From the NCBI RefSeq assembly GCF_003334305.1, contig NZ_QOWS01000019.1: 64,000 nt of DNA; one strand, 5' to 3'. Positions 11,766 to 16,922 of this stretch are shown here, piece by piece (within the stretch, counting starts at the first letter, position 1; each line of letters starts with the position of its first letter). The notes under the pieces are model-generated. The model worked only from the letters and a program-made list of their open reading frames with translations, was not told the DNA's origin and searched no databases. The position numbers and the translations under genes are program-made. The stretch is from Escherichia coli (lineage in GTDB: Bacteria > Pseudomonadota > Gammaproteobacteria > Enterobacterales > Enterobacteriaceae).

Positions 11766-12402
11766 CAATTATTATCAACAACTTGGAAGGAGTAAGACTA
11801 CCCGTGGCGATTCAATATTAGATCATTGATGGAGATATAAATGGCTCACTTTTTATCGGTTGTTGACGATACGTTTATCAAGTATACATGAAAATTTCTT
11901 CATACCAGCTATATGAGACGTTAAGACTAATAATCTTACTCCCAAAATGACTATGTTGTTGCAGTTTGGTTTATTGACTCTTGTCTATAGTTCACCGAAT
12001 GCCAAGATGAGGGAGCGAGGAACTTTACTGTCTACGCCTCTCTTCCTGGTTACAAAGACAAGCGTAAAACTCACCATCCATTAGAACTAAAGGCACTTTC
12101 CTGAGCAGAGTTTTCATCTGCAAGATAAAAGCTATTTTACAGCCGTAAAGTCCAGTGAAACGAAAGAGAGGTTAGTGAATTAATTACTTGATGTATTAAA
12201 GTATAATGGGCGTAGATAACACCTTAATACGAAATCTTGTCAGGCTTTCCCGGTAATTAGTAATACTGTTGAAACAAAGCGAGAGGGGGTTAGCCCAATT
12301 TACGCAAATAAATAATAATCTTGATTATGATTAATTCCAAATAAGTATATTTTTCCAGTAGATGCTGGGCATTAACTAAGAAAACCCAGAATACCACTTT
12401 CA

Positions 12403-13611
12403 TTGTTATGGAAAACATGGACAATGTTAATGAAATATATTTCTCACCGCGCCATCATTTGTACCTTGACACTGTTGATCATTATTATCACCGTTTTGTT
12501 CACCTTTCTGAGAAGCTCTGATGTGCCAGAATATATTACTGCCCCGGTGCGCAAAGGCGATATAGAAAATTCTGTTCTGGCGACAGGCCGTATTGATGCA
12601 ATTGAACGGGTAAACGTAGGGGCACAGGTATCAGGGCAATTAAAATCACTGAAAGTGAAACAGGGCGACCATGTGACTAAAGGGCAGTTGATTGCCGAAA
12701 TTGACGACCTACCTCAGTGTAACGATTTGCGTAATGCCGAAGCTGCACTCAACGAAGTGAAAGCAGAACTTCAATCCAAGCAGGCGCTCCTGAAACAGGC
12801 TGAACTGCGTTTTAAACGCCAGCTCCGGATGCTAAGAGAAAATGCCAGCTCACACGAAGATTTTGAGTCTGCGGAGGCAATGCTTGCGACCACTCGCGCT
12901 GAATTACATTCTCTGAATGCCAAACTGGTCCAGGCACAGATAGAAGTAGATAAGAAAAAGCTTGCCCTTGAATATACGCGAGTCGTAGCGCCAATGGATG
13001 GAATTGTTATTGCCATTGTCACTCAGCAAGGGCAAACCGTTAACTCAAACCAGAGTGCCCCAACAATTATTAAACTCGCTCGTCTGGATGTCATGACCAT
13101 TAAAGCACAGATCTCCGAGGCTGATATAACCCGTATTTCTGTGGGGCAAAAAGCCCGCTTCTCTATCTTCTCCGAACCGGACAAGCACTACAGCGCAACA
13201 CTGCGTGCCGTTGAACTGGCACCAGAATCGGTAATGAAAGATGACTCTCTCGCCAGCAACACTTCAGCATCAGGCTCCGGAACTTCAAATGCGTCCGTTT
13301 ATTACAATGCTCTATTCGATGTGCCTAACCCAGAAAATCGACTTCGTATTGCCATGACTGCTCAGGTTACCCTGATTACTGATGAAGCCCAAAATACACT
13401 GCTGGTACCCATTCAGGCAGTGCACAGAAATGAGGGGAAGAAGCAACAGGTCCTGGTGCTGGCAGCAGATGGCAGGCTGGAACCCCGGAATGTGAAAACT
13501 GGTATCACGAACAGCGTGGATATTCAGATCCTCGAAGGTTTAAATGTCGGAGAAAATGTCGTGCTGTCGCTGCCGGATAAGAAAGAGCCCGAAGAAAGGA
13601 TTATGCTGTGA
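12403..13611 (+). CDS. etsA: EtsA, periplasmic membrane-fusion protein (MacA/HlyD family)
   Basis: 402-aa ORF with N-terminal membrane anchor, coiled-coil and lipoyl/beta-barrel regions; first of three tightly linked genes. True start may be at the Met at 12427 or 12433. Confidence 0.85.
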   Translation: MLWKTWTMLMKYISHRAIICTLTLLIIIITVLFTFLRSSDVPEYITAPVRKGDIENSVLATGRIDAIERVNVGAQVSGQLKSLKVKQGDHVTKGQLIAEIDDLPQCNDLRNAEAALNEVKAELQSKQALLKQAELRFKRQLRMLRENASSHEDFESAEAMLATTRAELHSLNAKLVQAQIEVDKKKLALEYTRVVAPMDGIVIAIVTQQGQTVNSNQSAPTIIKLARLDVMTIKAQISEADITRISVGQKARFSIFSEPDKHYSATLRAVELAPESVMKDDSLASNTSASGSGTSNASVYYNALFDVPNPENRLRIAMTAQVTLITDEAQNTLLVPIQAVHRNEGKKQQVLVLAADGRLEPRNVKTGITNSVDIQILEGLNVGENVVLSLPDKKEPEERIML

Positions 13612-15548: not shown

Positions 15549-15551
15549 TAT

Positions 15552-16922
15552 ATGAAAATTTTATCATCGTTGACTTTATGCCTTATCACCGCACTCTGTT
15601 CAGGTTGCACAAACGTGCTGAAAAGTGACTATCGCGCTCCCGAAGTGAACTATCCCATCAACTGGACCAAGGGCGATGTGGACGGAAATACATCCCCGTT
15701 TGACTGGGAAGAATTTAACGATCCTAATCTCGATAACTGGCTTCACCTGGTGATGACAAGTAATAACGACATAGCTATAGCTGCACTGCGGATACATCGG
15801 GCGCAGCTGGATGCGGAAAGAACAGGTATCACCAATACTCCTGCACTAAAGGCGGCACTGAGTATGGACGGAAAAAAACAGCTGAATAACTCGTCCGGCT
15901 GGGCAAAAAGCGGTTCTGCCAGCCTTGGCACCAGCTATGAGCTGGATCTCTGGGGAAAAATTGCCCGTCAGCGTGATGTTGCTGAGTGGGCAGTCCATGC
16001 CAGTGAAGAAGATTTTCGCTCCGCGCGCCTGATGCTGCTTTCAGAGGCCAGCAATAATTACTGGCGTATCGGTTTTGTAAATCAACAAATTACCACCCTC
16101 CAGCAGAGTATTGACTATGCAAAAGAGACGCTGCGTCTGGCCGAGGTTCGCTATCGTGCAGGAAATATCTCGTCGCTGGATGTGATTGACGCGCAGCAAA
16201 ACCTGCTCACGCAAGAGAACCAGCTTACAGGGCTACAACGAGAACATTCACAGCTACTCAATCAGCAGGCCGTTTTGCTCGGCACCGTGCCCGGTTGCCA
16301 GATAGTCGAGCCCACAACGCTGCCAAAAGGAAGCCTGCCTAAGGTCAATGCGAATATTCCTGCCAGCATACTGATGCGCCGGCCTGACATAAGTGCTAAA
16401 GAGTGGCAGTTGCGTGAGGCGCTAGCTACGGTTGATATCAAGCGTAGCGAATATTACCCCACCTTCAACCTGACAGGCGCTTTGGGTACCAGCAGCGCTT
16501 CGCTACTGGCATTACTGCATAATCCGGTCGGTTCCGTAGGCGCTAACCTGACGCTACCGTTCCTGGAGTGGCGACAGCGGGACATAGAGGTAAAAATTGC
16601 CCGTAACGATTACGAACAGCGAGTGCTGGAGTTTAAACAGCTACTTTATAAGGCAATGAGCAGTATAGAGGACGCGCTTTCATTTCGTAACCAGTTGCTG
16701 CTTCAGGAGACAAGACTCAGGGAAGAACTGGAACTTGCACGTAAGTCAGAGTGGTTAAACGAAGTTCGTTACCGGCATGGTGCAGTACGTATTTCATTCT
16801 GGCTTGATGCTCAGGAAAAACGTCGTCAGGCGGAGCTGCGACTGGATGAAAACCGCTTCAATCAGTTGCAGAATCTAGCAAAAATTTATCTTGAGTTTGG
16901 CGGGGCATCAACCTTTCCTTAA
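15552..16922 (+). CDS. etsC: EtsC, TolC-like outer membrane efflux lipoprotein
   Basis: 456-aa ORF with lipoprotein signal (LITALCSGC) and outer-membrane-factor repeats; starts 4 bp after etsB. Confidence 0.85.
   Translation: MKILSSLTLCLITALCSGCTNVLKSDYRAPEVNYPINWTKGDVDGNTSPFDWEEFNDPNLDNWLHLVMTSNNDIAIAALRIHRAQLDAERTGITNTPALKAALSMDGKKQLNNSSGWAKSGSASLGTSYELDLWGKIARQRDVAEWAVHASEEDFRSARLMLLSEASNNYWRIGFVNQQITTLQQSIDYAKETLRLAEVRYRAGNISSLDVIDAQQNLLTQENQLTGLQREHSQLLNQQAVLLGTVPGCQIVEPTTLPKGSLPKVNANIPASILMRRPDISAKEWQLREALATVDIKRSEYYPTFNLTGALGTSSASLLALLHNPVGSVGANLTLPFLEWRQRDIEVKIARNDYEQRVLEFKQLLYKAMSSIEDALSFRNQLLLQETRLREELELARKSEWLNEVRYRHGAVRISFWLDAQEKRRQAELRLDENRFNQLQNLAKIYLEFGGASTFP

Follow-up and report, generated by a model that had tools for sequence, protein, structure and literature searches.

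The closest described relatives of the system considered here are the MacAB-TolC pump of Escherichia coli and Salmonella, PvdRT-OpmQ of Pseudomonas aeruginosa and TdeA of Aggregatibacter. PvdRT-OpmQ, a MacAB-like exporter, is iron-regulated and located in the pyoverdine cluster, and Salmonella MacAB exports linearised enterobactin. The PhoPQ system senses cationic antimicrobial peptides as well as low Mg2+ and acid pH. In Salmonella, macAB transcription is supported by PhoP, which binds the DNA ahead of macA; the peptide C18G, low Mg2+ and acid pH each induce the genes, and the pump makes cells resistant to C18G (PMC7446830). The operon etsABC, whose first description, in plasmids of avian E. 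coli, is credited to Johnson et al. (PMC2626276), is one of six gene sets that define ColV-like plasmids, and literature as late as December 2025 describes it only as "an ABC transporter" (ATP-binding cassette transporter). Here we analysed the etsABC copy in a 64,000-nucleotide stretch of E. coli DNA, hereafter the window, which belongs to a ColV/ColIa IncF plasmid. The best overall explanation, which we hold to be probable, combines a known pump, an upstream AT-rich motif that is not a Fur site, likely control by PhoPQ and a likely role in envelope defence. The operon itself is already known, and PhoP control is the new lead.

The region holds the etsABC operon already known from virulence plasmids of the ColV type, which encodes a MacAB-type pump with its own outer-membrane channel. 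It is 100% identical to pS88: positions 11800-17100 match pECOS88/pS88 (NC_011747) and hundreds of IncF ColV-type plasmids at 100% identity, and 372 of the 406 plasmid records that match this interval do so at 99% identity or more. RefSeq places three co-oriented genes at the locus, all on the + strand: etsA (12424-13611, RefSeq start, with an alternative TTG start at 12403), etsB (13608-15548, GTG start) and, as the third open reading frame (ORF) of the trio, etsC (15552-16922). A first-pass annotation made from the letters of the window had already named the locus etsABC, which is borne out by the identity to pS88, by the family and domain matches of the proteins and by the alignment to solved MacB structures. 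It had also described the genes as tightly coupled, with a 4-bp overlap followed by a 4-bp gap. The etsA/etsB overlap is indeed 4 bp (GTGA, 13608-13611); the etsB/etsC gap is 3 nt (TAT, 15549-15551), the flanking coordinates differing by 4.

The first gene product, EtsA, is a MacA-like periplasmic adaptor (membrane fusion protein). It scores 175 bits against TIGR01730 (cut-off 94.9) and 306.6 against the MacA equivalog model, under the cut-off of 342. Its Pfam domains are HlyD_D23, Biotin_lipoyl_2 and HlyD_3, it is 38% identical to K-12 MacA, and its single hydrophobic segment, residues 11-29, forms an N-terminal membrane anchor. EtsB is a MacB-type (type VII) ABC transporter with an N-terminal ATPase and four membrane helices. 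The Pfam domains follow in the order ABC_tran (residues 24-172), MacB_PCD (271-488) and FtsX (524-639); the ATPase motifs comprise Walker A GVSGSGKS at residue 41, LSGGQ at 145 and the H-loop TH at 201; and the four hydrophobic segments (273-291, 520-538, 569-587 and 611-629) leave a periplasmic domain of about 230 residues between membrane helices 1 and 2. The protein aligns over its full length with the solved MacB structures 5GKO, 5NIK and 5LIL. Given an identity of 49% to K-12 MacB and 785.9 bits against the MacB equivalog NF007826, under the curated cut-off of 966, we regard EtsB as a paralogue within the MacB family and not as MacB.

EtsC is a NodT/OprM-type outer-membrane factor and probably a lipoprotein, with Cys19 as the modified residue. 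It carries two Pfam OEP domains and scores 229.1 bits against the NodT-type model TIGR01845 (cut-off 210.05), 188.9 against the TdeA model, its second-best family match (cut-off 550), and 44.5 against the TolC model (cut-off 225). The N-terminus, MKILSSLTLCLITALCSGC, contains a signal peptide that ends LCSG|C19, with an atypical residue at -3. The earlier view of a MacA/MacB/TolC-like trio is right about an adaptor, a MacB-type pump and an outer-membrane factor, the last of which is not TolC proper. An older label, the type I protein secretion system of the original ets annotation, was also considered and rejected: the models type_I_hlyD (38.8 against 208.65) and type_I_sec_LssB (130 against 693) stay far under their cut-offs, which leaves the label unsupported, and the domain order is that of MacB. 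Together, EtsB as inner-membrane ABC transporter, EtsA as adaptor and EtsC as channel make up a self-contained, ATP-driven tripartite efflux pump. Since EtsC is the pump's own NodT-type channel, TolC should not be needed. By analogy with the MacAB-TolC structures, substrates may be taken from the periplasm or from the outer leaflet of the inner membrane and expelled across the outer membrane.

The first-pass annotation had further seen, upstream of etsA, repeated hexamers reminiscent of Fur-box half-sites, and had added that they form no clean 19-bp box. The AT-rich motif in question, AATAATCTTGATTATGATTAAT, has a single copy, which occupies 12314-12335 of the + strand and lies 89 nt before the ATG of etsA. 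We compared every position of the window, on either strand, with the 19-bp Fur consensus GATAATGATAATCATTATC and counted the mismatches. The best 19-mers upstream of etsA, at 12311 and 12317, have 6 mismatches (13/19), and 57 window sites match the consensus at least as well as the ets motif. The boxes at iron-induced promoters in the window served as controls and have 2-4 mismatches (15-17/19); these lie at iroB (28166/28172), iroN (38236), the DAHP-synthase gene ORF123 (40081), cvaA (41736) and cvi-cvaC (46163). In Markov-1 simulations of a composition-matched 608-bp upstream region, 27% of the trials produced one or more 13/19 matches and 5% produced two or more. With a symmetrised weight matrix built from six in-window control sites, the ets motif scored 9.1 bits and the control sites 16-24.5 bits in leave-one-out tests. 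The caution about the 19-bp box was accurate, and the likeness of the hexamers to Fur half-sites, real as it is, stays weak and sub-threshold at 13/19 and 9.1 bits.

Further Fur-like or repeat-like features deserve mention. Under a 7-1-7 model, TGATAATNATTATCA, the best Fur-like sequence near etsA sits inside the gene, as TGATCATTATTATCA at 12476-12490 with 1 mismatch, which equals what this model gives for the boxes of iroB, iroN, ORF123 and cvaA; the sequence arises from the Ile-Ile-Ile-Ile codons of the EtsA membrane anchor, where orthologues have 2-7 mismatches. The idea that the AT-rich motif was copied from elsewhere in the window was rejected, its sole match being a 25-nt, 84% similar segment between hlyF and mig-14 (E = 0.11, not significant). 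That intergenic DNA (5621-5651) also contains a 4-mismatch Fur-like 19-mer at 5633.

Conservation gives the motif little standing. The alignment between the window and CP056585, which carries a divergent ets allele (86.6% identity), is confined to 12354-16921, and the motif consequently lies just outside the shared DNA. In the pAPEC-O2-211A allele group, which is 97% identical, the hexamer core of the motif carries an A-to-C change. For 25 of 27 chromosomal orthologues, no site in the 300 bp upstream comes closer to the Fur consensus than 6-9 mismatches. The only orthologous loci with a moderately good Fur-like site in that interval are those of Serratia inhibens and S. plymuthica, with GAGAATAATATTTATTATC at 4 mismatches. 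The Fur hint for this region did not survive these comparisons: the match is sub-threshold, outside the conserved leader, variable between alleles and without a comparable site in 25 of 27 orthologues.

Published expression data bear directly on the same question. Lemaitre et al. followed 88 pS88 transcripts by quantitative reverse-transcription PCR (PMC3438092). Under the chelator 2,2'-dipyridyl, etsA stood at 0.49x and etsC at 1.05x, while ORF123 rose 355x, iroB 72x, cvaA 26x and sitA 18x; in human serum, human urine and in vivo urine, etsA and etsC likewise showed no rise (PMC3438092). The iron dependence envisaged in the first-pass annotation is thus largely contradicted by the pS88 data, in which dipyridyl brought no induction (PMC3438092). 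The searchable literature yielded no data on Fur binding to the site. On these published measurements etsABC is not induced by iron limitation, and together with the sequence statistics they indicate that 12314-12335 does not act as a Fur operator and amounts to a chance-level match in mosaic DNA.

Another regulator appears more promising. With a matrix built from the 17 footprinted activating Salmonella boxes of Zwir et al. (PMC3335776), we found two PhoP-box matches upstream of etsA, both on the + strand. The first, T TGTTGA CGATA CGTTTA T at 11860-11878, scores 17.8 bits and is followed, after 12 nt, by a predicted -10 hexamer GAAAAT (11890-11895). The second, T TGTTGC AGTTT GGTTTA T at 11956-11974, scores 17.1 bits and is followed, again after 12 nt, by a predicted -10 hexamer TATAGT (11986-11991), from which transcription would start near 11998 and run through a leader of about 425 nt to etsA. 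PhoP promoters of architecture I consist of the direct repeat (T/G)GTTTA-N5-(T/G)GTTTA placed 12 nt (11-13) upstream of the -10 hexamer (PMC3335776). Both ets boxes have this repeat and the 12-nt spacing, and both are oriented towards etsA.

Several statistics set these boxes apart from background. They are two of the three best PhoP hits on both strands of the 64-kb window and outscore the leave-one-out values of 15 of the 17 footprinted boxes. For 608 bp of matched composition, the probability of at least one hit at 17 bits or more is 0.0024, and that of at least two hits at 15 bits or more is 5e-5. Both boxes are identical in the 97% allele, as is the -10 hexamer of box 2, and no terminator-like sites were found on the + strand between the boxes and etsA. 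The predicted leaders of 425-520 nt are long, yet inside the range of 16-559 nt for known PhoP targets. On this sequence pattern, PhoPQ would be the most likely regulator, acting through the boxes at 11860 and 11956 upstream of the -10-like hexamers, and we put the chance that these candidate boxes place etsABC transcription under PhoPQ at about even.

The scan performed well on boxes with experimental backing. Run blind, it recovered the hlyF PhoP box (6808-6826, - strand) at 15.4 bits, at -69 to -53 of hlyF; Zhuge et al. used electrophoretic mobility shift assays, deletion and a phoP mutant to show that this box activates the hlyF-mig-14p operon (PMC5913352). The ybjX box, left out of training, was also recovered at 15.4 bits and has been validated by mutagenesis in Shigella (PMC12562796). 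In K-12, macA has an 18-bit PhoP box 42-60 nt upstream of its start. The searchable literature yielded no paper tying PhoP to ets. As a separate observation, the window holds a 17.5-bit PhoP-box match just before iss (25126-25144, +), 12 nt upstream of TAGGAT.

The promoters of chromosomal orthologues point in a similar direction. One genome per species was scanned, which gave the 27 chromosomal loci; their EtsB proteins are 73-88% identical to that of the window and come from Yersinia, Enterobacter, Cedecea, Rahnella, Serratia, Edwardsiella, Citrobacter and other genera. Although the genes further upstream are unrelated, a conserved promoter-like block precedes the 27 orthologues. The pattern (C/T/G)GTTTA-N5-NGTNNA-N12-NANNAT stands at the promoter position in 22 of them and also in a plasmid of Pantoea, the 12-nt spacing being kept in every case; none of 20,000 random 160-bp segments contained it. 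The Serratia and Cedecea sites reach 9-14 bits with the PhoP matrix, above the 99th percentile of the background. The three plasmid allele lineages tied to ColV-type backbones all lack the full pattern.

Only the three ets genes are syntenic across the 27 loci. An attempt to read the substrate from synteny was abandoned, there being no conserved neighbour past these genes, and the first-pass statement that the exported substrate is not evident from the sequence holds. No siderophore genes lie beside etsABC in any of the 27 chromosomal contexts. In several of the nearest chromosomal relatives, all of the Enterobacter/Cedecea group (Enterobacter spp., Enterobacteriaceae bacterium RIT693 and Cedecea neteri), a co-oriented gene set stands directly before etsABC, about 6.5 kb upstream of etsA; typed by eye, it comprises a resistance-nodulation-division (RND) adaptor, an RND pump, an OmpR-family response regulator and a heavy-metal (CusRS-like) sensor kinase.

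The DNA upstream of etsA is a patchwork. Its left boundary is a terminal remnant of an insertion sequence (IS) of the IS3 family at 11540-11815, with about 80% identity to IS3-family ends; such ends, some 80% identical and spanning roughly 11540-11826, occur in more than 1500 plasmids. The adjoining segment, 11816-12353, has a GC content of 35% and is present only in ets-bearing plasmids, which occur in 471 of 5426 complete E. coli genomes. Within it, 12022-12219 (- strand) is the decayed remainder of a group II intron's 5' end with flanking target DNA. It is 70% identical over 202 nt to the enterotoxigenic E. coli plasmid NZ_LR883008, where the match covers the first 125 nt or so of a group II intron plus its flank on the opposite strand, the intron there being identified by Rfam RF02005/RF00029 and an ltrA gene; an Rfam search of the window itself gave no match for 12022-12219. 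A derivation of this DNA from a decayed ompT 3' end was rejected, as BLASTN of 11816-12353 against the divergent allele with the ompT-etsA junction found no significant similarity. Mosaic DNA made of the IS3 end, the intron relic and AT-rich filler has taken the place of the ancestral promoter's upstream half.

Divergent plasmid alleles and the chromosomal orthologues of many genera are homologous to the window from 12354 onward, where a conserved remnant of the ets leader (12354-12423, + strand) begins. This pS88-type leader keeps the second half-site, AGTAGA (12357-12362), and a degenerate equivalent of the -10, AACTAA (12374-12379); it lacks the ancestral first half-site, (C/T)GTTTA, which lies past the breakpoint. 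Just upstream of the etsA ATG, the block GTTATGGAAAAC (12405-12416) is nearly invariant across many genera and more conserved than the coding start. Some Serratia and Cedecea have it in frame with etsA, which it extends by MEN..., whereas in other genomes the frame is shifted by one base; the block may belong to a ribosome-binding region. Other roles for the leader were rejected or set aside. As the start of a leader peptide, the ATGGAAAAC block (12408) was rejected: the ORFs that begin there run for 13 to more than 50 codons, are out of frame with etsA except in some Serratia and Cedecea, and share no conserved sequence. As an RNA element, the hairpin CTCCAGT-N4-ACTGGAG has right-arm changes that are uncompensated across orthologues, and has no Rfam match; it was set aside, as was a reading of the leader as a MerR-type operator. 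Between the two predicted PhoP promoters lies a 45-codon ORF (MTMLLQFGLL..., 11947-12084, +), which differs from the 97% allele by two synonymous changes, one Met-to-Ile change and a TAG-to-TAA stop. Its homologues, at 95% identity or more by tblastn, occur only in the same plasmids.

The company that etsABC keeps on plasmids is consistent with a function at the envelope. In CP056585, the block of mig-14, hlyF, ompT and etsABC is 73-87% identical to the window and the adjoining backbone 99.5%; ompT and etsA share a strand there, with ompT 111 bp upstream, and this junction is found in 14 plasmids, one allele among them, the third, coming from E. albertii. Because the block has co-diverged on a near-identical backbone, we infer that the pump has long travelled with mig-14, hlyF and ompT and not with iron loci. 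Mig-14p and OmpTp act in cationic-peptide resistance, and HlyF in vesicle production (PMC5913352). Under PhoPQ control, etsABC would join the neighbouring hlyF-mig-14p in one PhoP-commanded envelope-defence block. The most likely role would be to expel toxic compounds that resemble amphipathic or cationic peptides, as the paralogue MacAB does; that the pump defends the envelope against such peptides, a suggestion drawn by analogy, is less likely than PhoPQ control itself.

Certain points weigh against PhoP control. A reverse-oriented PhoP-box match about 80-95 nt upstream of ompTp (8226-8244, +) scores 13.1 bits, and 16-20 bits in two divergent ompT alleles; the ompTp promoter is reported neither to bind PhoP nor to respond to phoP deletion (PMC5913352), so hits of the matrix can be non-functional. 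The ets boxes stand 450-560 nt from the etsA ATG with the intron relic in between, and for that reason could be remnants of another gene's promoter. The nearest relatives on chromosomes have a weak second half-site, and their boxes as a whole score no better than background. The main rival holds that etsABC has no dedicated regulation: in the pS88-type allele the native promoter would be truncated, transcription would come at a low, roughly constitutive level from a fortuitous sigma-70 promoter in the AT-rich mosaic DNA or from read-through, possibly silenced by H-NS, and the PhoP boxes would be relics of a lost gene. The patchwork nature of the upstream DNA, with its IS3 end, intron relic and low GC content, agrees with this, as does the ancestral promoter, which has lost its first half-site and the invariant T of its -10 (AACTAA). 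The distance of the boxes from the start codon fits as well, promoter-like consensus matches upstream of etsA are as many as expected by chance, and etsA and etsC transcripts were detected and stayed unresponsive in all conditions tested (PMC3438092). What makes us consider this rival unlikely is the presence of two oriented boxes of at least 17 bits with 12-nt -10 spacing (P = 5e-5), intact in both allele groups, and the recurrence of the PhoP signature in the adjacent hlyF operon, in macAB and among the chromosomal orthologues. A broader version of PhoP control would divide the ColV plasmid into a Fur block (iro, ORF123, cva, cia) and a PhoPQ envelope-defence block (hlyF-mig-14p, ompTp, etsABC, iss), with etsABC as a PhoP-activated peptide pump of old PhoP ties. 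Orthologues would have retained the PhoP-like repeat at -35, a rearrangement would have removed it from the pS88-type site, and two canonical boxes would then have come to lie upstream. If true, this would explain why etsABC, hlyF, ompTp and iss stayed unresponsive under every condition tried with pS88; we hold it only tentatively, as somewhat doubtful.

Explanations centred on iron fare worse. That the AT-rich hexamers form a degenerate Fur operator, making etsABC iron-regulated like the plasmid siderophore and colicin loci, has some observations on its side, and these count against our own reading of the motif. Its matrix score ranks 26th of 63,982 positions, in the top 0.05% of the window, so the Fur impression of the first-pass annotation was not imaginary. 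Four in-phase NAT(A/T)AT-like hexamers reach 17/20 under a loose hexamer-array model, a tie with the iroB and cvi boxes; the two 13/19 matches overlap in a 6-bp register, as in 5% of simulations; and a TATATT hexamer lies close to the motif, at 12346-12351. In the iron-poor conditions etsA decreased throughout, to 0.31-0.49x, a small, consistent and mostly non-significant change (PMC3438092), so a weak indirect iron effect on etsA may exist. Up-regulation of etsABC in chicken serum in avian pathogenic E. coli (APEC) O1 is reported second-hand, as cited in PMC3438092. The hexamer-array and 7-1-7 models, however, separate real boxes poorly from AT-rich background, and the hexamer-array model matches many non-Fur AT-rich sites too. 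The motif has 6 mismatches where real sites have 2-4 and falls 7-15 bits under them, it is unconserved in divergent alleles and in 25 of 27 orthologues with a core substitution in a natural allele, and neither dipyridyl, serum nor urine induced etsABC on pS88 while Fur targets rose 18- to 355-fold. A Fur operator is thus very improbable. Still less credible is that EtsABC exports a siderophore or its breakdown products, as PvdRT-OpmQ and Salmonella MacAB might suggest. A salmochelin locus does lie in the same window, ColV plasmids are reported to carry aerobactin and sit loci, the three-part architecture with its own NodT-type channel is the same, and etsABC has been called a "hypothetical metal transport system" (PMC12928451). 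Yet expression is not iron-responsive, none of the 27 chromosomal contexts includes siderophore genes, the plasmid linkage is to ompT, hlyF and mig-14 and not to iro/iuc, and IroC on the same plasmid is annotated as the ABC transporter for salmochelin and enterobactin export.

Other features of the window were noted in passing. Downstream of etsC, an IS200-type remnant (17220-17623) consists of a hairpin (17222-17247), an STnc490 RNA (Rfam RF01405, 146 bits; 17263-17386) and a truncated transposase ORF (17345-17623). Two pairs of direct repeats of about 320-350 bp lie at 40722-41041/49295-49615 (94%) and 41052-41400/53110-53459 (98.6%); the first pair contains an identical Fur-like 19-mer, GTTATTGATTATTATTATC, with 3 mismatches, at 40981 and 49555. 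Strong Fur-like sites are also present at 25960 and, ahead of the gene for colicin Ia, at 51988.

These results matter chiefly for how the operon is followed up. Worldwide, etsABC helps to call ColV-like plasmids when extraintestinal E. coli, avian and human, are monitored by genome sequencing. Recognising the Fur lead as empty saves effort, and the PhoP lead offers a reason for the linkage of etsABC to ompTp, hlyF and mig-14p; if that lead is wrong, the region is a known pump behind mosaic junk DNA.

Set beside the described systems, etsABC comes closest to MacAB-TolC of E. coli and Salmonella. The two have in common the adaptor-pump gene order with overlapping stop and start codons, the end-to-end alignment and domains of EtsB and MacB, the MacA-type anchor of EtsA, and a high-scoring PhoP box upstream of macA with PhoP support of macAB (PMC7446830). 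In contrast, ets is a plasmid-borne, IS-flanked paralogue with its own NodT-type factor in place of TolC. PvdRT-OpmQ and TdeA resemble it in uniting an adaptor, a MacB-type pump and a NodT-family channel in three genes; EtsC scores so far under the TdeA cut-off that it is no equivalog, and, unlike PvdRT-OpmQ, ets is not iron-induced and has no biosynthetic neighbours. The in-window Fur boxes of iroB, iroN, ORF123, cvaA and cvi-cvaC are AT-rich, with NAT(A/T)AT-like hexamers as in the ets motif, whereas four of these five loci are induced 22- to 355-fold by chelation on pS88 (iroN is not, ex vivo). The hlyF-mig-14p operon shares with ets the plasmid block and a direct-orientation PhoP box 12 nt from a -10-like hexamer; hlyF has one validated box and a leader of about 22 nt, whereas ets has two predicted boxes and a leader of 425-520 nt.

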